From a virus, in IMG/VR virus record IMGVR_UViG_3300013117_000371: 64,000 nucleotides of DNA. One strand, written 5' to 3'. The position numbers and the translations under genes are program-made. Shown piece by piece: positions 104 to 58,745 of the stretch (position 1 is the stretch's first letter; each line of letters opens with the position of its first letter). A model generated the notes under the pieces. The model made no database searches. It was not told the origin of the DNA and saw nothing but the letters and a program-made list of their open reading frames with translations.

Positions 104-1909
104 CTACAACTCTTTGGGGTACTCGTACTCCCACTCCCCCCGCATAATGTTCCACGTACGGGAGATGTACTTGTGCGGCCGAGTCAACAACCACATCTCC
201 GGAGTGGGGTCCTCCCCCGGCTTCAGGGGGTGGGCGCCGGACAAAGAGATCCGCACGCCCTCATTGGTAAAGTGCTTTGCTTTAGCCACGTTGTACACCC
301 ACTCATCCGTAGTGTGGTGGGCAGTCCTCCCACTGCGCAGCTTCCGCCAGGCTTTCACCAGGAAGCCGGGGTTGGGCTCCACCGAGACATACCGCTTCAC
401 GATCACTCGACGGTCCTCCGGAGCGAACTGGGCCTGCCCCTCCAAACGGCGTACCCGGGCTTGGGCCTGACGGATGATCTCGGGGTTGAAGTGCCCCTCC
501 ATGGCCTGAAACATGTTGGCGTTCTTGAGGTCCAACCCTTCAGCCCCTGCGCCTGAAAGCACCAATACTCGAGTCTTGCCTGCTTTGAAGTCCTTGACCG
601 CTTGTTGGCGCCCTTCTTTGCTGATTTCGTGCTCCCCAACCTCCCGGCCGGCGCCGATAAAAATGGAGTGGGGTATCCCCCGCTGCGTCAACGCATAGTG
701 GACTGCCTCCACACCCCCCTTGATGAAGTTGGAATAGATGACCGTCTTGTTGCGGGGGTCTGCCGCCAAATGTTCCTCGGCATCACTTGCTACTCGCTCG
801 AGCTTGGTGGAGGTCTCCAGCATCTTGTCGTTCAGCCCAAAACGATTCTGCGTGGACTGCGCTGCCTGGCGGGCCTTGGTTACCCGAGCGAAGACGTGGT
901 GCCGTTCCTTCCTCTTTGGGACAATGCCGGCAATGATTCGCCGAACAATGGACGACGGAACTCCCCGGAGTTCCTCCTGGTAAAAATCCCACTGCTGGGA
1001 GGACATCTCCACCGGAATATACTCCGTAGTCACAGGGGGCAGGGACTTCCCCAGGTCCTCAGTGGAGACGAAGTCTATCCACTGCTCTCCCAACTTCATA
1101 AGGGTCTCGGGTTCAGTGACCGCCTTTTGCCCCCGCTCCCGGCCAAACAGCCCCTCAAACGTCCCCACCTGGGTAGTCACCTGTCGAGACAACCGCCCCT
1201 TGGCCGAAATCTCCCCGTCCGACACCGCCGACAATAGCGGCATCATGTCGTTGGGGGTGTTGGAAACTATCGAGCCAGTCAACAGGAGGCAATGGGGCAC
1301 CCCCCTCCGCAGCTCCATGAAGGAGCGAAAGTTCTGGGAGTTTGGGTCCTTCATCCTCTGAGCTTCGTCCGCTATCACCAAGCCCGGGGACAGGGCACTC
1401 AGTGCCGCCGCATGACGGCGGACCATGGCCCACCCCAACACGATGTAGTCAGGGAGGTTGTTCTGCACTTGGAGTTTCTTCAGGAAGGCAACGTCCTTCC
1501 CGGTCTGGATAACGAAGCCGTCTCGGTTGGTGAACTTCTCAATGCCCTGCTCATCAAACTGGGTCTTCAGCCCATCGGGGGTGATCACTACGATCGGCCC
1601 CCCACCTTGCTTCAGCACGTCCTCAGCAAGAGCTACCGACACAAAGGACTTCCCCGTGCCCACGCCATGGGCAAGGATGAGGCGGCCCCCATTCCGCCGG
1701 GCTTTCTCCAGCGCCCGCTTCTGGTGAGGGTAGGGAGTGAACCCCACCCGCAACCCTGGCCGCGAGGGGCGCCCCTCCGCCCACTTCGGGTGGGCCTGGC
1801 GAGCCTCGGCTAACTTCCCCAAGCCAGGGTGGTCGAGTATGCTGTTGAGTACTGAAGAAGCCACTGAGCGCACCTCCCGGGGCCATTCTACAGCCCCTAC
1901 CTGGCACAT
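104..1909 (-). CDS. SNF2/SWI2-family SF2 helicase/ATPase
   Basis: PYPHQKRAL (Q motif), GVGTGKS (Walker A), IADEAQ (Walker B), LLTGS (motif III), LSGAGAEGLDL (motif V), QAQARVRR (motif VI). Confidence 0.9.
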   Translation of the reverse strand: MCQVGAVEWPREVRSVASSVLNSILDHPGLGKLAEARQAHPKWAEGRPSRPGLRVGFTPYPHQKRALEKARRNGGRLILAHGVGTGKSFVSVALAEDVLKQGGGPIVVITPDGLKTQFDEQGIEKFTNRDGFVIQTGKDVAFLKKLQVQNNLPDYIVLGWAMVRRHAAALSALSPGLVIADEAQRMKDPNSQNFRSFMELRRGVPHCLLLTGSIVSNTPNDMMPLLSAVSDGEISAKGRLSRQVTTQVGTFEGLFGRERGQKAVTEPETLMKLGEQWIDFVSTEDLGKSLPPVTTEYIPVEMSSQQWDFYQEELRGVPSSIVRRIIAGIVPKRKERHHVFARVTKARQAAQSTQNRFGLNDKMLETSTKLERVASDAEEHLAADPRNKTVIYSNFIKGGVEAVHYALTQRGIPHSIFIGAGREVGEHEISKEGRQQAVKDFKAGKTRVLVLSGAGAEGLDLKNANMFQAMEGHFNPEIIRQAQARVRRLEGQAQFAPEDRRVIVKRYVSVEPNPGFLVKAWRKLRSGRTAHHTTDEWVYNVAKAKHFTNEGVRISLSGAHPLKPGEDPTPEMWLLTRPHKYISRTWNIMRGEWEYEYPKEL

Positions 1910-37471: not shown

Positions 37472-38815
37472 TCAATTACTGGAGCCAACGCTCCGTACAC
37501 TGCGGGGGTTCTGCCACTGAAACTCAAAACAGCCACGGTCCATCTCCCGCCCACTAATCGGATTGTAATCGAGATCGTGGTCTCGCCCTGTAGCCCACAG
37601 CCCCGTATCCACACAGGGGCTATCCCCCCGCAAATGATAGTCATCCCCGGAAGCATCCACAAACAGCGGATCTACAGACAGATCTGAGGCGTCCACGGGC
37701 CAATTGCCCGAGTAATCACCATTGGCGGCGCAGTTATTAAGACTGACTGCCACAGCACCCACTCCGCACGAGAACTCGTCAGTAGTGCCTCCATCCGAAA
37801 TGCAGTTTTGAACGGTGCGTCCTCCTGCTACGGGAACGTCCCCGATATAGAATCCCCGGGAGCCGCCGACCATAGTGCAGTTCTCAATGGTGCTGTCCGG
37901 AGCCGCCGGGTCTACGAGTGTGCCTCCTATTTCAATCCCCCGGTCTACCGCTCCCACGGAAACGAAATCGTATGCCGACAGGTTGCTGAAATGAACACTG
38001 CGGCCATACGCCCCGAATCCAATGGTACGCCCATCCGCTGTGAGGCCATGCACGGTGCTGTCTGAGATCGTGCCGTACTCGCCGGGCATAGCTGCCCAGG
38101 GCCCTGTGAAATAGATGCCGTAAACGCGGTCCTCGGCGTACGAATTGCGGGCGATGCAGCCCCTTACCGTAGGGGCGACAGTCGTGGAATTGGCGTAGAT
38201 CAAAAAGGCATCTTTCCCCGCCCCGGTGATGGAGGCCCCCTCAACAATCGACAGCTCAATCACGGTGGAGGTGCTGCCCTCACATCTGATCCCGTACCAG
38301 TTCTGGTTGGTGGGGTCTACCGGGGAGTCCACCAGAACTTGCCTGATCGTGTTGCCCGTCCCTGTAATCACCAGAGTGGACTGGCCAACACCGACGGCCC
38401 CGTTGGCAGTCATCCTCAATCCGGCGAAGGTGTTCCCCGTACCCCCCACGGTGAAGGGCGTGGCTCCAATGTAGCCCGTCACCGTCAGCCGCCCTGTGGT
38501 GCTCTGAACGTCCACGTCCCATGTATTCGCTCCCGCTCCCCATGCCATGCAAGTGGCGGTCGCCCCCGTCCCATCGAGCGTGTAGTCCGCACCATAGTGA
38601 CGCCAGGTGATACCGGTGACGCCCACCGGGGTAGTGAGAGACTGGTTCAATTCAGTATAGGGGCCGTACGTCTCTACCGTGTCCCCGTTCACCAGCGCCG
38701 CAAAGCAAGTAGCAAGCGAGGTGTAGTCCTTCCCGGCTCCGACTGTGCGGGTAAGGGCGGCTGCTGATACAGGCAGCAGACAGAGAAACAAGAGTAAGAT
38801 TACCGTCCGTCTCAT
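37472..38815 (-). CDS. Signal-peptide-bearing right-handed beta-helix (pectin-lyase-like) protein with a choice-of-anchor-Q-like C-terminus
   Basis: MRRTVILLLFLCLLPVSAAA signal; TVGAGKDYTSL; parallel beta-helix repeats; DPLFVDASGDDYHLRGDSPCVDTG..DRGCFE. Confidence 0.75.
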   Translation of the reverse strand: MRRTVILLLFLCLLPVSAAALTRTVGAGKDYTSLATCFAALVNGDTVETYGPYTELNQSLTTPVGVTGITWRHYGADYTLDGTGATATCMAWGAGANTWDVDVQSTTGRLTVTGYIGATPFTVGGTGNTFAGLRMTANGAVGVGQSTLVITGTGNTIRQVLVDSPVDPTNQNWYGIRCEGSTSTVIELSIVEGASITGAGKDAFLIYANSTTVAPTVRGCIARNSYAEDRVYGIYFTGPWAAMPGEYGTISDSTVHGLTADGRTIGFGAYGRSVHFSNLSAYDFVSVGAVDRGIEIGGTLVDPAAPDSTIENCTMVGGSRGFYIGDVPVAGGRTVQNCISDGGTTDEFSCGVGAVAVSLNNCAANGDYSGNWPVDASDLSVDPLFVDASGDDYHLRGDSPCVDTGLWATGRDHDLDYNPISGREMDRGCFEFQWQNPRSVRSVGSSN

Positions 38816-41629: not shown

Positions 41630-42332
41630 TGAGTTTGCGTATCACATCCATTGGGCCCAGTTGCTCATTGGCCGCAGTGAAGATGTGCATCCACCGCTTC
41701 GCCGCCGCCGAGCCGGCGATCGCATCCCGGGTGACCACCGCCTCCCGGTACTTGGCCGCCGCCGCTGCCCGCATGAACTTCAACTCCTCCTCCTTGTCGA
41801 TGTCCACTACCGCTCCGGAGTAGAGCAGGGCCACCTGATGCCCCATGCTGTAAAGGACTCGGTAAGTAGTCCCCGCCCGATGTAGCTCAAACAGCATGTC
41901 CAGTTCCCATCTGGAGAGGGACTTCAAGTCCCAAACCAGGTGGGAGTACATCCGGATAACCGACTCGGGGATGACCTTGCGGTGCAGCTCCATGACAGCG
42001 TTGCTGACCAACTGGTGATTGCCGTCTGCGGCGAGCAGGGACTCCACCGCAAACCGGAGCTCCCCCGAGTCCACAACGGCGCGGACCGTGCCGCACATGG
42101 CATCGTCGTGCCATACCCTGGACAAGAGGTTGTTGGCCACGAAATTGCTGACCGTTCGATCGTTGGTCAGGGGCTGTTGCACCCTTACATACAGGTCCTT
42201 AACATACCTCTCCAAGGCCTCTGACGGGTCGGTCTCCACGTACCCCAACTGCGCCAGGACGCGTAGGACATACTTCTGCGTCATCCCCTTCAGGAATAGG
42301 AGCAGAAGGTACCGTTCGCAGGGCAACTTCAT
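41472..42332 (-). CDS. Hypothetical helical protein
   Basis: ATGA overlap with the 656-aa gene; 286 aa. Confidence 0.65.
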   Translation of the reverse strand: MKLPCERYLLLLFLKGMTQKYVLRVLAQLGYVETDPSEALERYVKDLYVRVQQPLTNDRTVSNFVANNLLSRVWHDDAMCGTVRAVVDSGELRFAVESLLAADGNHQLVSNAVMELHRKVIPESVIRMYSHLVWDLKSLSRWELDMLFELHRAGTTYRVLYSMGHQVALLYSGAVVDIDKEEELKFMRAAAAAKYREAVVTRDAIAGSAAAKRWMHIFTAANEQLGPMDVIRKLIARVQLVKPTRERIEAVPYTELESISGLTRGIAMLADITEAQRAKEDAESSP

Positions 42333-44299
42333 GCTTGGCCGGCCCCCATACTATCCAGCTGGGTCAACTGGTCGGCTACCTTCTGCACGTTCTTGGTCGC
42401 CAAGAACGCGGTATCGGGGTCGACCGGCTCTAGCCCGATCTGCGCCGCCAAGGTGAGCTTGGCTAAGCTGTCAGCCAAAGCATACAAGGCAGGCAGCTGC
42501 TTGACAAACATGTCCAAAGTCTCACTCCCCATCAACTGGAGGGCCATCAGCTCGTCCTGCTGCTGGGGAAGCGCCGCCGCCAACTTGAGGAAACCCAAGT
42601 CCACGTCGTACTCAGTGTTCACCGTAGCCAAAGTCCTGGTCACCAGGAGGTCCTGCGGCCCCCTCCTGGAAGCCGCCACCTTCTGTAAAGCAGTGGGCTC
42701 GCCCACCCCCAGGGCCCCCAGGATGAACACAGCGTCGGGCAGGGATACAGCCTGCTTCTCCAGCGGCTCCCCTTCCCACTCGGCGTGCTCCACAGGCATT
42801 CCGGAAAGCGAGTAACCCAAGTGGTTCCTGGTCACGGTCACCCGCCTGGTGGGGAAGGAGCGGGACGCTACCTTCTCCAGGCTCATGTCGAAGTAGGACG
42901 CATCCTCCGTTACAAAGAATACCTGGGCGTCCTTGGGCAGGTACAATCGCCCGCTAAGCAGCAGCGGCTTCACCACCGTGGAGGAAATAACCACATCGGC
43001 CGCTTGCTCCGGGTGGTCCATGATCGAGTGCGTGGAAAAGTGGCGGCCCAGGTAAACCCGTCCCTTCTTGATCACGCCCAGCGGGCGGTAGATGGTGTTC
43101 TTTCCGGCAACCACCACCATCTTCTTGCCGGGGTGCCGCCACATGTCCTCCACCGAAGTCATCTTGATCGCCGGAGCCCGCCCTTTTACGTACTTGGTGG
43201 TGGGGTGCTCAGTCAACCTGTAAATCACCCCCTTGCTGGAGGTCGCCACGAGCCGTTCGGGGTCGTCGTCGCCCCACCCGATTTGCTTGAGCACCCGCAT
43301 GTTGAACTTGTTGCCGTTCTGGGAAGCTTTGATGCCCATCCCAGGCCTCAACTCACCTCGTTCGTACAGCGTCACAGTCCTTGCGGCCTGCTTCTCCAAC
43401 TCGAACACGCCGGGGTCCCTGACGATGGTGGCGAAGGGCTTACGGGAGAAGGCGTCCATCACCGCAGCCGGCACTTTACCTACCGGCAACTCCCGCACGG
43501 CGGGGCGGAAATCGCCGGCGTACGCTGTTTTCTCCATCACCCCAAACGGCACCCGCTCAAACTGCACTACCTCCTCCGGCACGGCGAGCAAGTCGCTCAC
43601 TTTGCGGCCGAAAGGGGTACCACTGAGGTAATCCAACAAGGACGCTTGCTTGGGGAGCTCCCCCAACACGGCCCGGCGGGAGTTGTTGGCCGAGTTGTCG
43701 ATGTTGCCGCCGTCCGGGCCCTTGGCGATGTTCTCCTGGTCCGGGGCGGTCTGCTGAGTCGGCATCAATTTCTTATTGGAGGAGGCGCCGATCACCGGCG
43801 CCGGCGCCCCAACCAGGTGGGAAAAGCCCATCTCCGTAGTAGGTATGGCGTAGTACTCACCGTCTATGGCGACCGCCACAGGGGGCTCCAGGGTGCCGTC
43901 GTTCACCACGAAGGGCACCGCCACGTTGCGCTGCTGGGGAGTAGCAATCATCACGCTGCCGACAATGATGTTCCCCTCGTCCTTGTCAATGCGGGGCTCC
44001 ATAGGCAACTGCGAGAGGTAGTCGAACTCGTTGACCACGGCCTCCAACGCTGCGGCCATGACAGCGTTGTGGTCCCGCATGTTCAGCGTCATCCGGCGGT
44101 TGGGGAAGGCGCCGACCTTGGGGCCTACCCATGGTTGCTGCCCCTGCTGGTGTTGGGGAACACCCGCCTGGCCCGGGGGTACCAGGCCAGCGTCCATAGG
44201 CGGCGAGGCGGGGGCCGCCAGGTCCGCCGAAGGCTGCGGTTGCTGCACGTCGGCCCTCTTCTCCATCCCCGGGTTCAGTTCCTCGAATACATGCTCCAT
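42329..44299 (-). CDS. Putative prohead core/inner-head protein with eight K-x-A sites
   Basis: MEKRAD, LPKQAS, MEKTAY, LEKQAA, LEKVAS, LEKQAV, LQKVAA, FLKLAA; sits next to the baseplate and RNAP genes. Confidence 0.55.
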   Translation of the reverse strand: MEHVFEELNPGMEKRADVQQPQPSADLAAPASPPMDAGLVPPGQAGVPQHQQGQQPWVGPKVGAFPNRRMTLNMRDHNAVMAAALEAVVNEFDYLSQLPMEPRIDKDEGNIIVGSVMIATPQQRNVAVPFVVNDGTLEPPVAVAIDGEYYAIPTTEMGFSHLVGAPAPVIGASSNKKLMPTQQTAPDQENIAKGPDGGNIDNSANNSRRAVLGELPKQASLLDYLSGTPFGRKVSDLLAVPEEVVQFERVPFGVMEKTAYAGDFRPAVRELPVGKVPAAVMDAFSRKPFATIVRDPGVFELEKQAARTVTLYERGELRPGMGIKASQNGNKFNMRVLKQIGWGDDDPERLVATSSKGVIYRLTEHPTTKYVKGRAPAIKMTSVEDMWRHPGKKMVVVAGKNTIYRPLGVIKKGRVYLGRHFSTHSIMDHPEQAADVVISSTVVKPLLLSGRLYLPKDAQVFFVTEDASYFDMSLEKVASRSFPTRRVTVTRNHLGYSLSGMPVEHAEWEGEPLEKQAVSLPDAVFILGALGVGEPTALQKVAASRRGPQDLLVTRTLATVNTEYDVDLGFLKLAAALPQQQDELMALQLMGSETLDMFVKQLPALYALADSLAKLTLAAQIGLEPVDPDTAFLATKNVQKVADQLTQLDSMGAGQA

Positions 44300-44308
44300 C
44301 TGTCTACC

Positions 44309-44617
44309 TCATTTGATCCGGCCGGTTCCCTGTACTTCCCCCGTGAGAGGAGGCACGATCGCCTTCAACCCGGGAGAAGGAAACCAGACGAGGGCCAACG
44401 CTAACTGCTCCAGGACTACTTTTGCCACCCCTTCGGCAATTGCATCAACCAGGTCCATATTCATTTCCGAAGCTACCGGCGCGCCCGGCTTGACGTCCAG
44501 GGATTGCCCCTGCGCTGTGATATCGACAGTGGGTACGGTGGGGACACTGGCTTGATACGCAGCAACGATGGCGGCGGAAATCTTGCCCTTGAAAACAGCC
44601 GGGTCGTCTAACGGCAT
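44309..44617 (-). CDS. Small protein downstream of the spike gene (possible spike tip or accessory)
   Basis: Position directly after the gp5/GpV-like gene; ends TGEVQGTGRIK. Confidence 0.4.
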   Translation of the reverse strand: MPLDDPAVFKGKISAAIVAAYQASVPTVPTVDITAQGQSLDVKPGAPVASEMNMDLVDAIAEGVAKVVLEQLALALVWFPSPGLKAIVPPLTGEVQGTGRIK

Positions 44618-44680
44618 GTGCGAGTCCTCCGGGTGTACCTCGAGGTAATCATAGCAATGACCGGGCTACTTTACAAGAGG

Positions 44681-45655
44681 TTACACCTGCACTTTGAAAT
44701 TCAGCACACCAGGGAAGGTCAACAAACAGGAGGGGTTGATCGTCCCGGCCGGGGTGACCAGAAAGTCGGTTGTCAACCACTGCATGAACTTGACCCCGTC
44801 AATGACGAACCCGTCCTCCTCAGTCAGTATCAGCCGCTGCGTATCGAAACGAATTTCAGGCGCCTCAAAGGTCACCGAGAGCTTGGCGTACCAGTACACG
44901 GTCTTCAAGGTGTTAATATCTACCGCCTCAGTCTCCAGCGTCATGGAGTCCTTAAAGGTGCCGAAAGTGTGTCCTTCTACATCGGTGTAGCTGTCCCCCT
45001 TGACCGAAACCCCCCGCGTCTGGGCCTCCTCCGAGTAACTGCCGTCAGCCGCAATTTCGGCGTGGAAAGCCCCGCACACGACGCTCGAGTACACGGCTCC
45101 CCCCTCCCCTGCCCAGTCCTTGACTCCGAAGTCCTTGCCGGTGCTCCCAAACCGCATGTGGAGGGTAGACTCACCTAAGTCGTGACCAACCACGAAGTCC
45201 AACACCGCATCCTTCCAGGACATCTTCCCCTGCGGCGTAACCAGCTCGTAATTGCTGGTGAGGATCTGCACTAAGTCCTGACTGGGCACTAAGTAAATGG
45301 ACGCGGTGGCTTTGCTATACAACTCGATACGCCCGTTCTTGCGGAGCACTATGCGACTGCCCAGGGGGAGCACCCACCCATGGTCGCCGGGATCAAGGTC
45401 AGTGTTCATCGTGCCTTCATGGTCCCGCGGCTGCAGCAGGAACCATTGCTCAGCTGACTCGGAAGTCCTCAACGCCAACCAAGGCTCGCCCTCTTCCGGC
45501 ATGGCTCCGGAGGCCTTCCCCCCCTTGAACGCATTGAGGCGCACATCCGGGATGATAACCGGGTCCTTGGCCGTGCCGTAGTCCAAACGGACAGTGGCCA
45601 GCTTATTCTCCGGGTCCACCGAAACAATAGTGACTTCTCTTATTTCTGCAGCCAT
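44681..45655 (-). CDS. Baseplate spike/hub protein (gp5/GpV-like)
   Basis: N-terminal OB-fold-like EVTIVSVDPENKLATVRL..AMPEEGEPWLAL; later beta-repeat VSVKGDSYTDVEGHTFGTFKDSMTLE. Confidence 0.6.
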   Translation of the reverse strand: MAAEIREVTIVSVDPENKLATVRLDYGTAKDPVIIPDVRLNAFKGGKASGAMPEEGEPWLALRTSESAEQWFLLQPRDHEGTMNTDLDPGDHGWVLPLGSRIVLRKNGRIELYSKATASIYLVPSQDLVQILTSNYELVTPQGKMSWKDAVLDFVVGHDLGESTLHMRFGSTGKDFGVKDWAGEGGAVYSSVVCGAFHAEIAADGSYSEEAQTRGVSVKGDSYTDVEGHTFGTFKDSMTLETEAVDINTLKTVYWYAKLSVTFEAPEIRFDTQRLILTEEDGFVIDGVKFMQWLTTDFLVTPAGTINPSCLLTFPGVLNFKVQV

Positions 45656-45663
45656 TGGAAACC

Positions 45664-48600
45664 TCAGTACCCGGGCCTACCTTCTCGCTTGGGCTTGCCG
45701 AACTCCGCCCCGCTCAACCAGGCAGGGACAGGGTGCAGCCCATGAACTTCAGCCCTCTCCCCGGTCGCCCCGGCCCTGATGAGGGTCTGTTTGACGCCCC
45801 GATAACCGAGGGACTCCAACCAGGTATCTCGATGCTGCGGCAACGCCGTCACCCCCTTCAACACAGGAGTTACCCTCAACGAGTTGTCGTGGGAGCGATT
45901 CCAAGCCCGGGCTTGGTAGTAGGGGATATACTCCCCCTTGATCTTATTGGAAGAGCCGGGGTCGTCCACCACCGCTAAGTTGGTAACGGCCCTGACCAAC
46001 ACTTCCACGTTCCGGGGGTCGATGCCATACTTGCCGTAGACAGCCATCAAGCTGTCCGCCATCGACCGCTGAGCGGCTGGTAAGCTCTTGGTCACGGCAA
46101 GCACCTCCCTCGGGTCCACCAAACCGGTAGTGAGGGCCTCCCCCAACTTCACGGACTGACCCCGTTTGACCACAACCGCGCGGCCCACCGGAGCGAAGTA
46201 CTTCCCCTTCCCTTTACTCCCCGTTACATGCACGTATGTGCCGTCGGGGACCTTCTCAACCGAGGCCACCTTCCCCGCCAAATGGGAAAGAGTGGCCTTA
46301 CCAGGCAAGTTCTGGGGCAAACGGAGAAGGTTGGTAACCTGGTCCAGGGGGGGGAGCTCCCCGAAGCCGCCGAGGTGAAAGCTGCGAAGCGTCAATTGGG
46401 TTCCCCGCTCCCCCAGGGCCTGGGCGGCCTTGATACCGACGTTGTCCCCCAACTGGGCCGGCCCATGCTCAGTCTGCCCGAAACACCTGGCGCAGATCCC
46501 TTCCCCGTTGCGGCAGCTCAGGGGGGAACGTACCCTTACCTGCTTTACTCCCTTGCGCCGGAAAATATCTACCTCGGCTGGAGTGATGATAGTGCCTGCT
46601 CTGACCCCCGCGGTGCTTTCCCCCAGCACTCTGTCCACGGCATCGGACACCGGGCGTACGCTGCCGGTGCTCCCACAATCACGGGTGGCGATGACCGAGC
46701 TCATGGTGGCGGCCAACATCTGCTTGGTGATGTCTCCAGGGATGCGTACGGACCGCACGGACTGCACCACTGCTTTGCGGGCCGTCGGCGCCGTGGACCA
46801 GTAGTCCATACTGTTCATTCCCTCGGCGTACCCCCTCCTCACCGGCACGAGGTTGCCCTCCCCCCAGTCTCCAAACAGGGGAGAAAGCAGCATTTGCTGC
46901 AAATTTGCCTTGGCCGGTTTCAACCCCGCCCGATTCATCCGGGTAAACGTGCTCCCGGGGGGGTATTGCTGTCTCTCCAGGGCTCTTCCCACGTCCCGCA
47001 CAGCTTTTTCCTTGTTTTTCGCCCCCTCCAACTGCCTCAAGTACCTCCGGCGCTCAGCCCTCAATGGCGTCAAATCCCCCAAGGACACCGACAGGCCTGA
47101 ACGGTAGGAGTATTCGAAGCCCAAATTCTTCAAGCCGTCCATGACCGCCCCGTAACGGGCGGGCGAGACCACCCCCAAGGTCTCTGCGAGGGCTTGGAGG
47201 CGCTTTTTGTCCAACTGGGGAGCGCCAACAGCCAAAAAACTCGCCATTTCGGGAGGTAAGAGGCCTTGAATCATGCTCCGGCCGAGGGTGGTCTCCTTCC
47301 CTGCCACCCGAATGCGGTCCGTGACCCCGATCTCCCCTCTTTTTTGGGCAGCAATGGCCTTTTTGAGGTCCCCGAAGCCCTTTTTTGCCTTTTTTCCCCT
47401 CACCGCAGTCATGTCGAAAAGCCCCATCAGCGCTTCATGGGTCGGAGTGTACAGGTAATCGCCGCTGGAGGGACTCCTGAGCAGCCTCGAGGGCATGCTG
47501 CGCTTGGCTTCGATGACCGCTTCGTCGGAAACGGGGACGAAGAGAGAGCAGGTGTCCCCGTCGAAGTCCGCGTTGTACACGCTGGTCACCAGGGGGTGTA
47601 ATTCAATGACGTTTTCGTTGGTCGGGCGGGGAAAGAAGGCCATAACGCCGAACTTGTGAAGCACCGGGTCCCGCTTCAGCCACACCGGGCGGTCAGCAAT
47701 AGCCCGTTTCAGGGCGGCTTCAACCAGGGGGTCCTCAGGACGGTCCTCGGTGAGCTTCTTAGCTACCAAAGGGGTTAATCCCAAAGTAGCAAGCTCTCGG
47801 ACAATGAAGGGCTGGTACATCTCCCGCAGCATCTCCCGCGGAACTCCTACCTCATCCAGGTGCAAACCGGGCCCGGGGACAATCACGGCTCTCCCGGACA
47901 AGTCCTGCCGACGCCGCATGATGTTGCGGTGGACCATGCCCAACTTCACCGAGCCGGTCCCGTGCAGCTGCTGAAAGATGCCCTTGGCTTCCCTGTAGTG
48001 TTCCGTCTTGCCTAAACCGAACAGGGCGGCTACGTCGGCGTAAAGCTTACCCCGGGCGTTTCTCCCCTCCTCGAAAGCCATGAGCTCAGGGGTTTCCTTT
48101 TTCAACCCCTTAAGTGAGTTGCCAGTGGCAATAAGGTCGCCGTACAGGAGGTTCAGGTCCGAAATAATCAGCCGCCCCTTCATAGAGGTAACCGGCCGAA
48201 AGACCGGGGGTATCACAGGGACGTTGCGGAGCATGTATACGTCCGCTCCCTCGCCCAGCTCATCCAGAGCCCGGAGGAACCTCTGACGTAGGGGGTCGCC
48301 TCCCTTGCTCAGCTCCTTTCGGACGTCCAATTCCCTAAGGGCCTTACCTAACGTGGTGTTGCCCGGCCCATCTACCGCCGTGTACTTCCCGTCCTCGTAC
48401 TGAAGGCCCTTTTGCCCGCTGCCCACAGCGATAACGTGCGCACGGGTCAAGCCCAAGATCTTGGAGATGGGGGAAATGAACACTGGGTTGGGGACTTCGT
48501 AAGGGAGACGAATATGGCCCCAGCCCGAGCCGTCCAAACCACCCGTAATCTTCGAGTCGAAGAGCTCCCCCGCCTTTGCCTTGCCGGTCTTGCCGGAGAA

Positions 48601-51600
48601 CATGGTGGGCTTGGTCAATTCACCGTTGGAACGAGCCAGGATCTCCTTATTGGTCATGGGTAAGAGCCACATCTCGTCCCCTTCCCTCTCCAGCTTCAAC
48701 CCGGCCGCATTCAGGTAGGCTTCGAACTTGTGGTACACCTTGGGGACCCGAGGAGGGGGTAGGGTTTGCCCCAGTTGAATGGCGGTCCACACTGCATCGT
48801 TGTCCTTGTCACCACGATAGCTGAGCACCTCACGCATGTTCTCGCCAGCACCGTGTGCAAGTAGGGCCATGGCCATCCCCCGGTCGGCAGACTGGGCTTT
48901 CCCTACTTCGCCTTCTCCGGCCTCCCCACCTTTTACCGGGGTACCTTCAGCGGAGTACGCGTAGGGGTAGCCGGCACCTCGAGCATTCATCTTGTGCTCG
49001 GCCTGGTGGATGAGCTTCAGCAAGTACTGGTACCCCACCAGGACGTCCCCCACCTTCTTGCCGTCAACGAAGACCTCCTCTGTGTCGGACATCCCGTTCT
49101 TCTTCAGGAGCTCCGCCACTTCCTCAACGAAGTCCCGCTCGTAGCTGTAAGCTTCGATGTGCTTCTTGATCGGCCTGCGCTCCTCCCCCCTCCCAACCCA
49201 GTAGGTGCGCTCATGCGCCGGGACATCAACAATACGGACACCTCCGGAGAAGCTGCTGACCGCAATGGGGTGCCCTTTCTTCTTGGCAACTTTGCCTACC
49301 AGAGTCTCGTACATCTGGGAGGGATTTGTACGCCCCCCGATTCCGACAGGATTAAGCAAGACATCAAGCGGTCTCCCGTCCCTGGTGGTGGGCATCTCCG
49401 AATCCGGTTTGATCTTTCCGCATACGCCCTTGTTGCCATGCCGGCCACTGAGCTTGTCGCCCAGCTTGGCCACCTCTTCCACCGCCACAGCGATGTAGTA
49501 CCCATCCGGCGTCTTCTCCACCTCTTGCACGATTCCGGGGGTCTGCCGATCCCACACCACCGAGGCGTCTCTGAGCGTCTCCATCCCCAACTTCTTGCCC
49601 AGTAGGCGCTCCTCTTTGGACATGGCCTGCTTCTTCACCCCGGCCACCAGGATTTGCCCCTCTCGGACCAAAGTACCTGGCTTTACCACCCCATCCTCCA
49701 ACGTCGCCCGCTCCTCCACCGACAGCGGCCGTACAGTGCGGGAGAACAACGCGGCGTCCACCTCAGCGTCTTCGCTATAGTGCTTCTGCACAATAGCTGT
49801 AGAAGTGAGCTTGGCGGCAAAGGACTCGCTGATGGTGATGGCGTCCTCGAAGTTGAACCCGTCGGCCATGTAGCCTACCCGGGCGTTCACCCCCATGGCG
49901 ATGAGCCCGTCCCGAGTAGTGTTGGCCTCTGTGAGGCGGTCGCCCTTCTTGACCTTGTCCCCCTTCTTCACTACGGGCTCGTGGTGCTCCACCGATCGGC
50001 CGTCGTTCAAGGGGAACATATGGGGGATGAAGACCTTGTGCTTCCGCCCGTCCTCCCCGTTCACCAGAATGCGGTCTTTGTTCACGGAAACCACGGTTCC
50101 GTTCACGGGAGAGCGCATCACCACCATGTCTCCAATTACTCGCTCCACTATTCGACCGTTGTCCGTGGCCGTCAGTACTAGCGGAACCTCCCGGTCCCGC
50201 AAGGCAATAGCGGAAGTCAAATGACGGTACACCATCTCCAAGCGGTTGGGGGAGGTGGCAGTGGCAAACGGGGTGGACAGGGTCACCTCTGAGAAAGTAG
50301 TAGCCGGGTCGATAACGTACTTCACGCTCCCGGCCGGCACTTCGACTACCTTGCCGCCCTTGATGGCCCGTACGTTCCGCCCAGCCTTCTTTGCCTGAGC
50401 ATACTCATCAGTGAGCGCGTACGGGGTATTGAGCAGCTCCCGCACCGTGAACGTGTGGGGCTGGCCCGTCTTCACTTCGCGTACCCTGAGAGCAGGCTCC
50501 CGGTTCTTCACCGTACCACCGATAGAAAGGGGGTACACCGCCCCCGCTTTCTCACTCTCCGGCGTCACCACCGGGTCGATGACGCCCACAAACGTGGGGT
50601 AGACGGAGCGGGCCGCCTCAGTGATGGCGTCGGGGTTGGAGATGCCCCCCTCCCCCATGATGCTGACCCGGCCCACTGCGCCCAATTCCGCATAGGGGTT
50701 GGTCTGCGGCGCCCGGTCGGCCAGGCCGGCGGAGGTGAAAATGCTCCACACCGACTTGTCGTACGGGGAGGACCCACCCATGATAGCCGTCACATCGTCA
50801 CTTTTGGCCATTCGGTACTTGAGCTTCCCGGTCACTCCCGCTCGGCTGATCCGCTCATGCACGAACGCAGGCATGTTCATGAACCAACGGTACTCCAACG
50901 AGTCTCTCCGGTCCGGTGTGTCCTTCCCCCGCACCACGTTCAGCAACTTCCGAGAAGAGAGGAGCATCACCTGGGAGGAGACCTTGGTAGTCTTCAACCC
51001 AATAGTCTTCTCCGGCACTTCAGGAGTGCTCATCTCCATGGCGGAGAACATCTCCCGGACCAACAGGGGGGCCCCGCTCTCGTTGGAGTCCACCCCCGCC
51101 GCTGCCAGCAACCGGACCAACTTGGGCTTAGTCGCTGCATTCTTTTGGAGCACTTCTGCACCCCAGGCGGACCGCATGTCACCGTCATCCACCCCCAAGG
51201 CCTTCATGACATGGTAAAGAGGGACATTGGTGTCCCCGTACTTCAAGGTGTAGAGCTGCCGCTCCGGGCTGTACAGGACCTCAAAGTTCCTCCCCCGGGA
51301 GAGGTTGAAAGAGGCAACGGTATCCCCTGTCTGCTTGCGGTGAATAAACACCCCCGGCTTCAGCCGGTTCTGAGTAATGGGGTAGTACTCACTGTTATTG
51401 ACGATGTAGCTCCACCTGGAAGTAGGCACGGGCACATTCACCAAGCGCAGCCGTTGCTTGTCTACAAGCCTCCCCTCTTCATACAGCGCCACGGTCCCCC
51501 GAATACCTACGCCCCACTTCTTCCCCTGCACCCGAGCAGCTTTCTGGGCGCTGACATCAGTGGGGTCCTTGGGGGTTTCCACCTCTACTTCGGACAGCCG

Positions 51601-51702
51601 CAACTCCCTCTTCCCGTACTTGACCGGGAACTGCCCCTCAAGGGCGCGCATGGCAGCGTTCAAGTTCTCCGAGTAGTCCCGGGGGAGCGTCCTGTCCGGC
51701 AT
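45664..51702 (-). CDS. rpoBC: Single-chain fused beta/beta-prime DNA-directed RNA polymerase
   Basis: Beta motifs: GFNFEDAI, GDKLSGRHGNKGV, LKLIHQAEHKMNAR. Beta-prime motifs: RRQDLSGRAVI, LKRDPVLH, NADFDGD (47574-47554), RSPLSC..GICARCFG, GERGTQLTLRSFH. No stop at the junction (~48690). Confidence 0.95.
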   Translation of the reverse strand: MPDRTLPRDYSENLNAAMRALEGQFPVKYGKRELRLSEVEVETPKDPTDVSAQKAARVQGKKWGVGIRGTVALYEEGRLVDKQRLRLVNVPVPTSRWSYIVNNSEYYPITQNRLKPGVFIHRKQTGDTVASFNLSRGRNFEVLYSPERQLYTLKYGDTNVPLYHVMKALGVDDGDMRSAWGAEVLQKNAATKPKLVRLLAAAGVDSNESGAPLLVREMFSAMEMSTPEVPEKTIGLKTTKVSSQVMLLSSRKLLNVVRGKDTPDRRDSLEYRWFMNMPAFVHERISRAGVTGKLKYRMAKSDDVTAIMGGSSPYDKSVWSIFTSAGLADRAPQTNPYAELGAVGRVSIMGEGGISNPDAITEAARSVYPTFVGVIDPVVTPESEKAGAVYPLSIGGTVKNREPALRVREVKTGQPHTFTVRELLNTPYALTDEYAQAKKAGRNVRAIKGGKVVEVPAGSVKYVIDPATTFSEVTLSTPFATATSPNRLEMVYRHLTSAIALRDREVPLVLTATDNGRIVERVIGDMVVMRSPVNGTVVSVNKDRILVNGEDGRKHKVFIPHMFPLNDGRSVEHHEPVVKKGDKVKKGDRLTEANTTRDGLIAMGVNARVGYMADGFNFEDAITISESFAAKLTSTAIVQKHYSEDAEVDAALFSRTVRPLSVEERATLEDGVVKPGTLVREGQILVAGVKKQAMSKEERLLGKKLGMETLRDASVVWDRQTPGIVQEVEKTPDGYYIAVAVEEVAKLGDKLSGRHGNKGVCGKIKPDSEMPTTRDGRPLDVLLNPVGIGGRTNPSQMYETLVGKVAKKKGHPIAVSSFSGGVRIVDVPAHERTYWVGRGEERRPIKKHIEAYSYERDFVEEVAELLKKNGMSDTEEVFVDGKKVGDVLVGYQYLLKLIHQAEHKMNARGAGYPYAYSAEGTPVKGGEAGEGEVGKAQSADRGMAMALLAHGAGENMREVLSYRGDKDNDAVWTAIQLGQTLPPPRVPKVYHKFEAYLNAAGLKLEREGDEMWLLPMTNKEILARSNGELTKPTMFSGKTGKAKAGELFDSKITGGLDGSGWGHIRLPYEVPNPVFISPISKILGLTRAHVIAVGSGQKGLQYEDGKYTAVDGPGNTTLGKALRELDVRKELSKGGDPLRQRFLRALDELGEGADVYMLRNVPVIPPVFRPVTSMKGRLIISDLNLLYGDLIATGNSLKGLKKETPELMAFEEGRNARGKLYADVAALFGLGKTEHYREAKGIFQQLHGTGSVKLGMVHRNIMRRRQDLSGRAVIVPGPGLHLDEVGVPREMLREMYQPFIVRELATLGLTPLVAKKLTEDRPEDPLVEAALKRAIADRPVWLKRDPVLHKFGVMAFFPRPTNENVIELHPLVTSVYNADFDGDTCSLFVPVSDEAVIEAKRSMPSRLLRSPSSGDYLYTPTHEALMGLFDMTAVRGKKAKKGFGDLKKAIAAQKRGEIGVTDRIRVAGKETTLGRSMIQGLLPPEMASFLAVGAPQLDKKRLQALAETLGVVSPARYGAVMDGLKNLGFEYSYRSGLSVSLGDLTPLRAERRRYLRQLEGAKNKEKAVRDVGRALERQQYPPGSTFTRMNRAGLKPAKANLQQMLLSPLFGDWGEGNLVPVRRGYAEGMNSMDYWSTAPTARKAVVQSVRSVRIPGDITKQMLAATMSSVIATRDCGSTGSVRPVSDAVDRVLGESTAGVRAGTIITPAEVDIFRRKGVKQVRVRSPLSCRNGEGICARCFGQTEHGPAQLGDNVGIKAAQALGERGTQLTLRSFHLGGFGELPPLDQVTNLLRLPQNLPGKATLSHLAGKVASVEKVPDGTYVHVTGSKGKGKYFAPVGRAVVVKRGQSVKLGEALTTGLVDPREVLAVTKSLPAAQRSMADSLMAVYGKYGIDPRNVEVLVRAVTNLAVVDDPGSSNKIKGEYIPYYQARAWNRSHDNSLRVTPVLKGVTALPQHRDTWLESLGYRGVKQTLIRAGATGERAEVHGLHPVPAWLSGAEFGKPKREGRPGY

Positions 51703-51780
51703 CGGTTCCCTCCACTAGTCCGTAGTCTAACCTACCCGGCGCTAAAAAGAAAGAAGCGTAGCAAAGGGCAGCCAAATCCC

Positions 51781-51866: not shown

Positions 51867-52967
51867 GTGGCACTAGACATCACAAGTGTGACTCGCCAGG
51901 TAGCACATCGGCTTGACGAGACACAACTCGACGGGAGGGTGATCGGAGGAAGGGGCGGATTCTCCCGATTCTTCCGAGACCACCTGCCAGAGGGGATGGT
52001 CCTCATCTCCAACGCCCAATCCATAAAGCTCTTTGAAGCCCACTACGGAAAGGCCCCCTGGGAAGCCTATGGCTGGGGGAAGGAAGAAGTGGGGCGGAGC
52101 GAAGCCGGGCGGGCAGTACTGAAAGAAGTTGAGGACACCGGAGTCATCCCCTACATGTTGGCCTGGGAGTACATCGTACCCCCGGATTGCGAAGTCACCC
52201 TGGTCAACGCCGAAACCGTAAGTAACTCATTCTTCGGTGCAAGTTTCAAATCGGCCATCCACCTCGTTGGGGACCCGTTCCGATCCCCAAGGCCGGGGGC
52301 GATGTCGAATCTGCTCATGAACGCCGCAGAGAACGAGGTCTCTCTGCCTTTCACGATCGTGCGGAATCTACGAGAGCTGGGGTTCCACCCGGACCAGTGG
52401 CTGCCGATAGATGAGGATATCATCCAAGTGGTGGACGCCATCGAGGAGGATGCCCGAATGATTACGGTCGTCGTGCCAACTTGGGCAGATATGGAGTTGA
52501 TTGATTGGGCAACGCCCAATCGCTTCCCCAAAGATGACTTTGGGGTGTTTGCCACTACCGTGGCGGACATAGCACGGCATGGCCCCAACCGAGCTTACGG
52601 GCTCATCCTGGAAGCCTGCCAAACGAAGTTCACTCGGGAACGGTATCTCCGGAGAGGCACGCCGGAAAAGACCGCTGAGGAACTCGCCAAGTGTGACTAC
52701 GTGTCGGACTTTGCCAAGGACACGGTACCCATGGATGTGCTGGAAAAGGACCTCAATGCCGTATGGTCCCCCACCGGCCTGAATTACCCCCGTGGGAGCG
52801 ACCGCCGCATCATGACGGTCTACACACTGAACGACACCGACTGGGTTGTGCTGCTCCCGCCCCCAGCCTGGTGGAAAGATCACGAGAGGGCATGGTACCT
52901 GTACCGTGCCGCCACGTCCGCAAGGGAGGGCATACTTGTCGTGGACGAGGAGGAGGAAGGGTTCTGA
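51867..52967 (+). CDS. Degenerate, probably inactive SF1 (RecD/UvrD-like) helicase derivative
   Basis: IHLVGDPFR resembles motif III; IMTVY and YLYRAATSARE resemble the motif V/VI region; Walker A/B are not intact. Confidence 0.55.
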   Translation: MALDITSVTRQVAHRLDETQLDGRVIGGRGGFSRFFRDHLPEGMVLISNAQSIKLFEAHYGKAPWEAYGWGKEEVGRSEAGRAVLKEVEDTGVIPYMLAWEYIVPPDCEVTLVNAETVSNSFFGASFKSAIHLVGDPFRSPRPGAMSNLLMNAAENEVSLPFTIVRNLRELGFHPDQWLPIDEDIIQVVDAIEEDARMITVVVPTWADMELIDWATPNRFPKDDFGVFATTVADIARHGPNRAYGLILEACQTKFTRERYLRRGTPEKTAEELAKCDYVSDFAKDTVPMDVLEKDLNAVWSPTGLNYPRGSDRRIMTVYTLNDTDWVVLLPPPAWWKDHERAWYLYRAATSAREGILVVDEEEEGF

Positions 52968-53154: not shown

Positions 53155-53169
53155 CTTCCGGCAAAGGGA

Positions 53170-53210
53170 GGGGGACGGTTCTGGGGACCGTCCCCCTTTC
53201 CCCCTTTTTT
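53170..53210 (+). terminator. Intrinsic terminator
   Basis: GGGGGACGGT / ACCGTCCCCC 10-bp stem, then a pyrimidine tract ending TTTTTT. Confidence 0.75.
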
Positions 53211-55146
53211 AGCTGTACCCCGCTCTGCGTGGCGGGAGCTGCTCAGGGAGGGGCCTTTCAATGACCGGCTGCATGGGGTTGAATTGCTCCATCAGCGCCC
53301 GGTGCATATCAATGTTCTTGTTGGCGATGTCCTGCAACACCATAGCCCGCTGCAAGGGGGACTGATGCTTCAGCGCCATGCTGATCTTGTGTACTGCCCC
53401 CGGGTCCACACCTTCGGGAGGCACCATAGCGAGTATCTCCGGCGTTCCCATCACCCCGTGCGTTCCCGACAACTGGTCGGGGGGAGGCGCTAAGGGGGAT
53501 TCCCCCGGTTGAGCCTCCTGGCCGGGTTGAGGCTGTCCCTCTCCAGGGGCTCCTCCCGGCGGTGCTTCCTGGCCAGGTTGAGGCTGCCCAGGTTGAGGCT
53601 GCCCCGGTGGAGGGCCGAGCCCCAATTCCTCCTGCAACCGCTGAATCGCCGCCTGGTTGCGCACTCGCATCTTCTGCTCCTCGAGTTGTGCTTCCCAAAC
53701 GGCCTCACTGTCAAGGCCCATTCGCTCGTGCACCACCCGGTACGCCAGGCCGCCCTGGGCCGCCATGCCGCTCAGGATGGAGAGCTTCTGGACCTCGTCC
53801 CCGGACATGATGGGTTGGAGGAAGACCTCGTTGGGCAGCCCCCAGCCCAGAATGGAGGCGCACTTCTTCATCACGAACCGAATGAACCGCTTGTGCAAGT
53901 GCATCAACGCTATGAACTCGGTGTCCAATGCCCGCAGAGAATGGGAAGCGCCCGACCACGACTTGCCGCCCCACACGAACTCGACCGGTGTGCGCGCTCC
54001 AATGAGGATACGCTCCATCAGCAACCTGACCTGCTGGTCAGGCATGAGCAGGCGATTGGGGTCCCCGAACTGGAGCAGCTGCGACGGGATGGGGGAAATG
54101 GCCACCGAGGCCGGGTCCTGCTCCCAAGTCTCCAGCTGGCTGCGCATCTTGTCCATCCACATCTTTGCGGCGCCGGACAGGTTCACACTGTGCCCAGCAT
54201 CTCCGGAAGCGGCCGGGGTGATCATCCGGAAAGGGATGAGCTGAGTCATCACCAGCGCCTCCTCCGCTTTCAAAACAATCTTCATATGGAAGCAGTCAGG
54301 CAACGTCCCGGCCAACGTCGGCCAGGGCCACCCTTCCCTGGTCTGCACGGACTTCTTGTAGGTGGAAGGAGTCAGCGCTGTTTCCTCAAAGATGAACACC
54401 TGGTCATTGAACAGGTTCATCTTCTTATTACGGAGGATGGCCTCAACAAACTCCTGCGGGGTGTCGGCAATGGCCTCCCGCTTCCCTAACTTGACCTGGT
54501 TCCGAAACTCTTTGGAGAAATCCACCTGGTACTTAGGCTGCAACGAGAAGCCGACGCGCCTCACCGACAGCTCAAAGGGGTCCCACCGCCGTAGGGTGAT
54601 GCGATTCCCCGCCTTGATGTAGAAATCCCTGACCACTGCTCGTTGGTAGCTCTTGCAGACCACACAACGCACCCGGAAGGACTTGTCCCACGGGTCCACC
54701 TTGAACTTGGCGATCTTGGCTAAGTGAGGCTTCCCGCACTTCTTGCAGAGGAAGTACTTGTTGAACGGGGCGATCACCGACACTGCAGCGTGCCCGTACA
54801 CATAGAGGTCAAGGTTGATCTGCACCCGCAACGCCTGAATATCCAAAAACTCCGTCAGGAGCTCCACCCAGTCGTCTATTTCAGACTCCCGAAGCCCGCC
54901 CCGCAAAGTGAGATCGGTAACCGGGTACAATGCTTTGCGGACAATGGCAGCATTGAGTAGGGGGTTGAAGATGGCGAAGTAGGCGCACCACCGCCATACC
55001 TCATGGAGGGTGTCGGGGAGTACTGTACTGGCGTAATCCAAAAAAGGCGACGGGGGCTTGCTCAACGTCAGCCGGGACCGATCGTAAGCGGCCAGTTTGG
55101 AAGGCGGCCGCCTCTGCGGCAACGATTTGACTCTGCCTTCACCCAC
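53209..55146 (-). CDS. Probable portal protein with a zinc-ribbon insertion and a Pro/Gln/Gly tail
   Basis: Size and portal-like segments (WCAYFAIFNPLLNAAIVRKALYPVTDL; INLDLYVYGHAAV; ILIGARTPVEFVWGG..SGASHSLRAL); CKKC..CVVC; structural context. Confidence 0.6.
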   Translation of the reverse strand: MGEGRVKSLPQRRPPSKLAAYDRSRLTLSKPPSPFLDYASTVLPDTLHEVWRWCAYFAIFNPLLNAAIVRKALYPVTDLTLRGGLRESEIDDWVELLTEFLDIQALRVQINLDLYVYGHAAVSVIAPFNKYFLCKKCGKPHLAKIAKFKVDPWDKSFRVRCVVCKSYQRAVVRDFYIKAGNRITLRRWDPFELSVRRVGFSLQPKYQVDFSKEFRNQVKLGKREAIADTPQEFVEAILRNKKMNLFNDQVFIFEETALTPSTYKKSVQTREGWPWPTLAGTLPDCFHMKIVLKAEEALVMTQLIPFRMITPAASGDAGHSVNLSGAAKMWMDKMRSQLETWEQDPASVAISPIPSQLLQFGDPNRLLMPDQQVRLLMERILIGARTPVEFVWGGKSWSGASHSLRALDTEFIALMHLHKRFIRFVMKKCASILGWGLPNEVFLQPIMSGDEVQKLSILSGMAAQGGLAYRVVHERMGLDSEAVWEAQLEEQKMRVRNQAAIQRLQEELGLGPPPGQPQPGQPQPGQEAPPGGAPGEGQPQPGQEAQPGESPLAPPPDQLSGTHGVMGTPEILAMVPPEGVDPGAVHKISMALKHQSPLQRAMVLQDIANKNIDMHRALMEQFNPMQPVIERPLPEQLPPRRAGYS

Positions 55147-57674: not shown

Positions 57675-58745
57675 ATGATTCTTAAGCACGGAACGATTCA
57701 CGCGGAAGTGCGGGTGTTACAGGGAAAGCTCAACAGGGCGGGTTATCCTGTAGGGCCCGAGGACGGAAAATTCTTCAACATGACGGATTTCGCAGTGCGG
57801 GCGTTCCAGGCTGCCTACGGGCTCGCAGTCGACGGGCACGTAGGGGTGGGGGACCACGCCGGCGAAACCATCCAGACGCTGGACGGCATCCTGGCCGCAG
57901 CACAGTCGCACATCACCAATGAGGTCGTCGACACCTTCGAGGAGGCCGCTGCCCTCCCCTTCGGGCTGCCGGCCAACAACTTCGACCGGCGCATCTCCGC
58001 CGCTGTCATGCAGCAGCAGAACTGCGACGGCGGGCAGGGATGTCGGTACGGGGGGTGGATCGACCCCTACCAGTTCGACAAGGAGCAGTTTGACAACAAC
58101 CAGGTCTTCGTCGTCCCCAAGGTGGGGAGGCTAGTCCCCGGCCATGAACTGGAAGCGCCCGTTCACGGCGGGACCTGCTCCCCCTGGGCGGGGCTGATGG
58201 TGGGCGGCATTGTCTGCGTCAACCAGGACTACAACTTCCGCATCGGCCGCAGCGGGCGCAAAATCGCCACTTCGAAGCATGATGCCAAGGTAGGTCGCCA
58301 CGTCGTTCCAGGGTACGGGGACTATTTCGAAGTGCACGGGAAACTGCGCCTGGAGCAGCGCCCGCTGAACATCCTGTACCAACATTGGGACTGGCTCAAC
58401 AAAGTCAACCTCGTGGAAATGGACCACCACGTCATCCTTATCCTCAAAGTAGGGGGGGAGGACGGACTGCGGCTAGAGGACCCCCACAACCCAGGCCAGC
58501 CTCTTCCGTCCGGGTTGTACCGGTGGGCGGCGGATGGGTACTACCCCAAGGTGGACACGGACGGGGACGGAGTAAGGGAGAAGTTCTACTCCGGCACCAA
58601 ACAGACCTTCCGGCGCATCAAGGAAGTGGACAAATGCCGCCAGAGGTGGGACTTCTACCGCCTCCAGGACATGGACCCGGACACCTGCTCCCCCACCGAC
58701 GGGCCATGGGCAAGCCGAGAACCGTGGCCGTTCGAGCTCGAGTAG
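57675..58745 (+). CDS. Peptidoglycan-binding-domain protein, putative endolysin or cell-wall hydrolase
   Basis: EVRVLQGKLNRAGYPVGPEDGKF..TDFAVRAFQAAYGLAVDGHVG (PG_binding_1); possible Cys/His dyad GTCSPW..HHVILI. Confidence 0.75.
   Translation: MILKHGTIHAEVRVLQGKLNRAGYPVGPEDGKFFNMTDFAVRAFQAAYGLAVDGHVGVGDHAGETIQTLDGILAAAQSHITNEVVDTFEEAAALPFGLPANNFDRRISAAVMQQQNCDGGQGCRYGGWIDPYQFDKEQFDNNQVFVVPKVGRLVPGHELEAPVHGGTCSPWAGLMVGGIVCVNQDYNFRIGRSGRKIATSKHDAKVGRHVVPGYGDYFEVHGKLRLEQRPLNILYQHWDWLNKVNLVEMDHHVILILKVGGEDGLRLEDPHNPGQPLPSGLYRWAADGYYPKVDTDGDGVREKFYSGTKQTFRRIKEVDKCRQRWDFYRLQDMDPDTCSPTDGPWASREPWPFELE

Follow-up and report, generated by a model that had tools for sequence, protein, structure and literature searches.

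A single-chain, bacterial-type RNA polymerase core encoded next to the portal gene of an uncultured tailed phage

The DNA analyzed here is a stretch of 64,000 nucleotides from IMG/VR virus record IMGVR_UViG_3300013117_000371, and we refer to this whole stretch as the window. Its element of interest is a gene for a single-chain beta-beta' RNA polymerase (RNAP), whose product we designate P0001. The original prediction, made from the sequence alone, described a 2012-amino-acid (aa) open reading frame (ORF) in which a bacterial-type beta subunit runs straight into beta' and the NADFDGD motif is intact. It placed the gene among virion-assembly genes and read the enzyme as a streamlined, possibly alpha-independent phage RNAP. 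The description of the ORF is borne out by the ORF list, the Pfam matches, the alignments and the motifs. P0001 is a complete bacterial-type RNAP catalytic core on one chain, from an uncultured tailed phage. The coordinates of all features are collected in Table 1.

The polymerase gene and its product

The ORF is uninterrupted over its 2012 codons, as seen in the ORF list and the translation. It starts with ATG and is preceded by a Shine-Dalgarno sequence. Its third-position GC content (GC3) is 0.77, and that of the flanking genes is 0.75-0.82. The best matches of P0001 in the PDB are bacterial beta and beta', and the protein carries every catalytic element of a bacterial-type two-barrel core (Table 1). 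Each half aligns collinearly with its bacterial counterpart, beta or beta', along almost all of its length, at an identity of only about 29%. Residues 297-1002 align with residues 360-1097 of Thermus beta (E 2e-60). The alignment with a cyanobacterial beta begins as early as aa 73, which indicates that the N-terminal lobes of beta are kept but have diverged. The beta' half (1007 residues) aligns with residues 495-850 and 997-1463 of Thermus beta' (E 6e-94). The two halves meet without a linker, the end of beta being joined directly to the start of beta'; the beta alignment stops at aa 1002, a beta' N-terminal motif lies some 10 residues past that point, and the N-terminal beta' alignment runs from near aa 1020.

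Compared with the E. coli enzyme, P0001 lacks the lineage-specific insertions and the N-terminal zinc ribbon of beta'. The four cysteines of this ribbon are absent, as there is no Cys at all in aa 1006-1150, and the second Zn site is retained. These differences bear on two remarks of the original prediction. Each half is indeed shorter than its E. coli counterpart, but the sizes are near those of minimal bacterial subunits. Likewise, "streamlined" is apt for the loss of the insertions and of the beta' zinc ribbon, but not for the core itself, which is not reduced.

Contact residues of the E. coli enzyme were located in P0001 by alignment. The positions matching D516 and H526 of E. coli beta, which we take to belong to the rifampicin pocket, are P and A. 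Those matching R275, E295 and A302 of E. coli beta', presumably sigma-70 contacts, are T, A and D, on a clamp-helix scaffold that is retained. These changed contact residues suggest that P0001 may be insensitive to rifampicin and may not bind the host sigma-70.

A family of fused phage polymerases

The window enzyme is not a one-off but one member of a large fusion family. When P0001 was searched against a large protein collection, 743 significant matches were returned, more than 100 of them full single-chain fusions of about 2000-2170 aa. The contigs that carry these fusions are up to about 210 kb long, and relatives of the window phage are found on contigs of about 180-210 kb. Many other members reach 2400-2975 aa owing to inteins. 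In P0001 numbering, the intein sites fall at about 383, at 752-764, at 963, at 1383 (inside NADFDGD) and at 1777-1786, and these are catalytic motifs. Inteins with LAGLIDADG or Hom_end domains were observed in P0002, P0005, P0013, P0019, P0032, P0039 and others; P0001 has none. The nearest relative, P0002, comes from a hydrocarbon metagenome, is 61-69% identical to P0001, contains two inteins and has the whole local gene order in common with the window. A search of IMG/VR with the RNAP gave no close relative. The best matches from cultured phages, at about 28% identity, are those of Vibrio phages D69, D148 and D181 (about 187 kb) and Salmonella phage Arash (181 kb). To our knowledge the family has few cultured members, and we know of no biochemical study of any of them.

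A tree of beta' was computed from 58 rows with IQ-TREE under LG+C20 and rooted at its midpoint. The rows comprised 27 fused proteins (P0001 included), Arash and D69 with their pieces joined, five beta'-only proteins, one beta' of a Rhizobium phage and 23 bacterial beta' sequences, the last being the best matches only, with no archaeal outgroup. The 27 fusions, the five beta'-only fragments and Arash/D69 form one clade with a Shimodaira-Hasegawa-like approximate likelihood ratio test (SH-aLRT) support of 100, and all 23 sampled bacterial beta' lie on the opposite side of the tree (SH-aLRT 99). Within the clade, P0001 groups with P0003, P0004 and P0006 (SH-aLRT 100). P0001 is part of a phage/metagenome-only clade that is distinct from the sampled bacterial beta'. 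The original prediction had set phylogeny against cellular RNAPs as a check on its reading, and P0001 is not nested among the 23 bacterial sequences (support 99-100).

The beta'-only proteins were considered as true split forms. P0132, the one checked, starts at contig base 16 and is a truncation artefact. Contig-end truncation is the probable origin of the beta'-only proteins that nest among the fusions, and we claim genuine split forms for Arash and D69 alone.

The portal gene and other genes of the window

Two genes upstream of the RNAP gene, a 645-aa ORF encodes a protein that is a portal, as judged by its modeled fold. In BLASTP it matches the annotated portal of Arash, gp204 (E 9e-35). 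It has no Pfam or PHROG family match, and profile searches against PDB sequences matched no portal; the fold search alone did. The AlphaFold2 model built from an 86-sequence alignment has a predicted local distance difference test (pLDDT) score of 81, compared with 42 for a model from a five-sequence alignment. Among the Foldseek matches listed against the PDB, all are virus portal or connector/neck proteins, with a probability of 1.00 and E values down to 7e-8, and they include entries from lambda, E217, T4, G20c and HTV1. The portal family counts 1685 representatives at 50% identity. In 7/7 relative loci (Arash, D69, L007/L008, the P0006 contig, L009, L010 and L011) the portal gene lies upstream of the RNAP gene. 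Genes for an SNF2 helicase and a GpA-type terminase frequently occur near the RNAP in these loci, the helicase being close to it in L009 and L010. The placing of the RNAP gene beside a portal operon is upheld by the portal fold, and its assignment to a phage, among virion genes, by that fold together with the phage clade.

Two observations on the portal itself are of note. A cluster of four cysteines (C134, C137, C161 and C164), three of them invariant and the fourth nearly so among the 86 homologues, resembles a zinc-ribbon insertion within a beta-rich region and is unusual among portals. Many portal homologues are 1000-2400 aa long and match in several stretches, which suggests inteins.

A hairpin terminator with a 16-bp stem separates the portal gene from the divergent 366-aa gene. 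This strong terminator indicates that the RNAP gene begins a separate transcription unit, apart from the portal operon. The 366-aa gene itself, which stands between portal and RNAP, has no Pfam or PHROG match. It has counterparts of 358 aa in L007 and of 365 aa beside P0006, and it is not kept in more distant relatives. Directly after the RNAP gene come three co-directional genes of 324, 102 and 656 aa, for which no family match was found; L007 has the same order (323/103/659 aa). The longest of the three (42329-44299) had been called a spike gene in the original prediction, a name that finds no backing in Pfam, PHROG or the ESM Atlas, none of which gave a match. The 447-aa beta-helix protein encoded at 37472-38815, with its pectate-lyase-like matches, would make a more plausible tail spike or depolymerase than the product of this ORF. 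Overall, PHROG and Pfam searches with 10 RNAP neighbors gave almost no matches.

The SNF2-family helicase at one end of the window is homologous to Arash gp217 (tblastn E 1e-41), whose gene comes after the gene for the C-terminal beta' piece in Arash. When all window ORFs were compared by tblastn, only the helicase, the RNAP and the portal were detectably common to Arash. DNA methyltransferases are encoded near the helicase, a peptidoglycan-binding-domain protein with endolysin-type matches lies beyond the portal gene, and a Lar-like restriction-alleviation match was observed at 61847-62461. A further ORF, P0242 (14902-15669, minus strand, 255 aa), is composed of helix-turn-helix repeats, five in tandem and each about 45 aa long, with weak Pfam matches to HTH_23, HTH_AsnC and Sigma70_r4 (26 bits), and with no sigma region 2; from its sequence it may be a multi-site DNA-binding protein or a transcription factor. 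In the segment 28380-31466 (about 3 kb), no ORF shows a convincing codon bias, and the GC skew is positive, versus negative elsewhere in the window. Scans for tRNA genes and Rfam families over the whole window, this segment included, were empty.

Table 1. Coordinates and supporting evidence for the features of the 64,000-nucleotide window, with those of the polymerase gene given first
Feature	Position	Strand	Size or residues	Basis or remark
Single-chain beta-beta' RNA polymerase gene	45664..51702	-	2012 aa, P0001	ORF list, translation, Pfam, PDB matches
Shine-Dalgarno GGAGG	51709..51713	-		Six bases 5' of RNAP ATG; sequence reading
Beta module	48688..51702	-	aa 1-1005	
Beta' module	45667..48687	-	aa 1006-2012	
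Fusion junction, ...GLKLEREGDE to MWLLPMT...	48655..48690	-		Beta end joined to beta' start, linker-free
Rpb2_3			aa 331-394	Pfam, E 2e-7
Rpb2_6			aa 571-911	Pfam, E 1e-48
Rpb1_1			aa 1157-1211	Pfam, E 4e-5
Rpb1_2			aa 1331-1401	Pfam, E 5e-25
Rpb1_3			aa 1410-1544	Pfam, E 3e-4
Rpb1_5			aa 1642-1782	Pfam, E 4e-12
Beta catalytic lysine loop GDKLSGRHGNKG	49426-49461	-	aa 748-759	GDKxxxRHGNKG type
NADFDGD Mg-binding motif	47554-47574	-	aa 1377-1383	
Switch-2 segment RRRQDLSGRAVIV		-	aa 1263-1275	
Trigger-loop start GERGTQLTLRSFHLGG	46366-46413	-	aa 1764-1779	
Clamp helices	48016-48162	-		
Second Zn site, DCGST ... SPLSCRNGEGICARCFG	46477-46527 + 46666-46680	-		Retained
Portal protein gene	53209..55146	-	645 aa	Two genes upstream of RNAP
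Hairpin terminator	53166..53200	.	16-bp stem	Terminator scan; between portal gene and divergent 366-aa gene
Divergent gene between portal and RNAP	51867..52967	+	366 aa	
Three co-directional genes directly after RNAP	42329..45655	-	324, 102, 656 aa	
SNF2-family helicase	104..1909	-	601 aa	Pfam SNF2-rel_dom + Helicase_C
DNA methyltransferases, N6_N4_Mtase and Dam-type	3235-5100 and 6959-7453	-		Near SNF2 helicase
Beta-helix protein	37472-38815	-	447 aa	Pectate-lyase-like matches Disaggr_assoc, DUF5123
Peptidoglycan-binding-domain protein	57675-58745			Endolysin-type matches

Probable virion carriage and sigma use, and comparison with known polymerases

Pfam searches of about 50 window ORFs found no alpha or omega, in a scan that left out ORFs below about 150 aa, the size of omega. 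No sigma was matched among the same ORFs by Pfam, nor in the window by phmmer with three sigmas of relatives. At this level the original prediction was right that no alpha, omega or sigma gene is recognizable in the window. For sigma the statement stands for the window only and does not extend to the lineage, as Arash and D69 both encode sigma-70-family proteins. Sigma70_r2 was matched in Arash by gp196 (E 1e-11) and weakly by gp10, and in D69 by one ORF (E 4e-8); the gp10 gene sits in a structural operon of Arash. Each of these two complete genomes has exactly one Rpb1_2-type gene, and no alpha or omega was matched in either. Because both cultured relatives encode sigma-70-family proteins, the P0001 enzyme is probably sigma-dependent rather than self-sufficient.

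Virion proteomics of Arash bears on where such an enzyme acts. The piece with beta and N-terminal beta' (gp206) gave 128 unique peptides and 3516 spectra, the highest of all, the C-terminal beta' piece (gp216) 40 and 1210, the SNF2 helicase (gp217) 38 and 1148, and the gp10 sigma 24 and 467, while the second sigma, gp196, was not listed (PMC10585845). The RNAP, the gp10 sigma and the helicase thus rank among the particle proteins of highest abundance. From these data we consider it probable that P0001 is a phage RNAP carried in the virion, able to work independently of the host RNAP and probably directed by a phage sigma. The single-chain core would be packaged in the capsid and enter the cell with the DNA, and the SNF2 helicase and a phage sigma would probably travel with it. 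On entry, the core would transcribe the early genes without the host RNAP. As the sole phage RNAP, it would probably serve later genes too, by way of a second phage sigma, and the covalent beta-beta' tether may stand in, at least partly, for alpha in assembly. A fuller version of this proposal, in which one single-chain core serves the whole infection as a holoenzyme, with a packaged sigma and the SNF2 helicase early and a second, unpackaged sigma late, is tentative, and we put it forward as something short of an even bet.

Several points weigh against a virion-carried, host-independent enzyme. Fusion by itself does not imply alpha independence, and the beta-beta' fusions of E. coli and Helicobacter continue to work with alpha, so that a use of host alpha is conceivable here as well. 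A sigma gene of the window phage, if present, would lie outside the 64-kb window. A simple k-mer scan of the intergenic regions gave no shared promoter motif, and a scan of the window for the sigma-70 consensus showed no enrichment. The RNAP has no recognizable capsid-targeting N-terminal leader, and its sole EKxA-like site (aa 384) falls within a beta motif that is conserved. Packaging is transferred to the window phage from a relative of only about 28% identity. The authors of the Arash study themselves caution, with 116 proteins detected, that abundant intracellular enzymes may contaminate particle preparations (PMC10585845).

Some of these points lend weight to the explanation that P0001 is a non-virion RNAP, made after infection for middle and late genes while the host RNAP transcribes the early ones, in which case adjacency to the portal would reflect late co-expression. 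The missing leader fits this explanation, as does the placing of the RNAP in its own transcription unit, from which the strong terminator separates the portal operon, and the carry-over that the Arash authors allow for would account for the enzyme in particle preparations (PMC10585845). However, the RNAP pieces of Arash top all spectral counts, and one sigma is present while the other is not, a selectivity that carry-over explains poorly. Moreover, the relatives have a single RNAP set, so that a late-only enzyme would leave the virion sigma without a role. We consider this explanation unlikely, although it deserves to be taken seriously.

We find it rather improbable that the phage supplies beta-beta' only, as part of a hybrid enzyme that recruits the host alpha dimer and perhaps omega or the host sigma. 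Such recruitment would agree with the near full-length collinearity of the halves with bacterial beta and beta', with the lack of any phage alpha or omega in the ORFs and genomes searched, and with the continued use of alpha by cellular fusions. Yet P0001 is identical to the bacterial subunits at only about 29% of positions, other residues occupy the sigma-docking helix positions, the relatives have sigmas of their own, and the phage RNAPs of phiKZ and AR9 work without alpha (PMC7598289; PMC13282480). Finally, the locus could in principle be the rpoBC of a bacterium, the product of misassembly or an ORF fused through sequencing error, which we regard as extremely improbable in spite of the bacterial subunits being the best PDB matches. 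The same architecture recurs, without interruption, in more than 100 independent homologues that come from different samples, GC3 is like that of the neighbors, and these neighbors encode a portal, an SNF2 helicase, an endolysin-like protein and DNA methylases. Of the roughly 50 window ORFs scanned, none matched a ribosomal protein or another product of an rpoBC operon, there is no tRNA gene in the window, and the tree splits the clade from bacterial beta'. The original prediction had named this case as its own refutation, and the neighbors, the fused homologues and the tree contradict it.

The polymerases closest to P0001 among cultured phages are those of Arash and D69. They fall in the same beta' clade, have the gene order portal, small ORF and RNAP, and have the SNF2 helicase as a partner; in each, the genome has a single RNAP alongside genes of the sigma-70 family, and neither alpha nor omega was found. 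They differ in that the enzymes of Arash, D69, D148 and D181 are in two pieces, of about 1525 aa (beta and N-terminal beta') and about 606 aa (C-terminal beta'), whereas P0001 is one chain. The break of Arash and D69 corresponds to P0001 residues 1471/1472, and the pieces are set apart by two small ORFs in D69 and by nine genes in Arash. The RpoBC proteins of Helicobacter and Wolbachia have the same order of fusion, from the C terminus of beta to the N terminus of beta', but they are typical enzymes of bacteria, about 2900 aa long, which work with alpha, omega and the host sigma. In contrast, P0001 has 2012 aa, is without the beta' zinc ribbon and falls outside the sampled bacterial beta'.

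The mReC phage RNAPs are bacterial-like, with readily alignable beta and beta' that branch outside the cellular clades (PMC7481178, Weinheimer and Aylward 2020). Many are compact, with a beta of about 1000-1050 aa and a beta' of about 900-1010 aa (PMC7481178). They differ from P0001 in that beta and beta' are separate ORFs, and not fused, in every supplementary-table row examined (PMC7481178). Fusion is mentioned in that paper only for crAss phage (PMC7481178). Some mReC contigs have T4-type markers (gp20 portal or baseplate) and capsids that match Pfam Gp23, whereas the window portal matches no Pfam family. As a separate observation, several mReC contigs in supplementary data 2 have two separate beta/beta' pairs, of about 1360/1005 aa and about 1020/900 aa (PMC7481178), and to that extent hint at two RNAP sets, unlike the single set of Arash and D69.

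The enzymes of phiKZ and AR9 are likewise two-barrel phage RNAPs, with one set packaged in the virion, no alpha or omega, and a genomically linked SNF2/Rad25-like helicase (PMC7824862). They are nonetheless built from 4-5 polypeptides and exist as two sets, lack a sigma and have diverged widely (PMC7824862; PMC13282480; PMC7598289), in contrast to the single ORF of P0001. The non-virion RNAP of AR9 matches P0001 only at E 1e-15, compared with 1e-60 for bacterial beta. Like P0001, crAss gp66 and YonO are single-polypeptide two-barrel phage RNAPs, and gp66 is virion-associated. However, they are too divergent for sequence alignment with cellular subunits (PMC7481178), whereas P0001 aligns at E 1e-60 to 1e-94. 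Our literature searches gave no description of this phage beta-beta' fusion type beyond crAss gp66. P0001 differs from known phage RNAPs in being a single, bacterial-like chain, with, as judged from its cultured relatives, one set per genome and accompanying sigma factors.

Reviews of jumbo phages hold that RNAP-encoding phages lack sigma and that phages without an RNAP of their own encode sigma (PMC7598289, PMC7824862). The lineage of P0001 appears to have both, contrary to this rule. If the holoenzyme proposal is true, the enzyme would be the first phage-encoded, sigma-dependent and alpha-less RNAP, and it would break the published rule of RNAP or sigma. A single chain of 2012 residues that retains the full bacterial-type catalytic core, but not alpha, omega or the beta' zinc ribbon, would offer a minimal model, taken from nature, of RNAP assembly and of core-sigma recognition. 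Delivery of the enzyme by the virion, together with its predicted insensitivity to rifampicin, would also account for the takeover of hosts by such phages.

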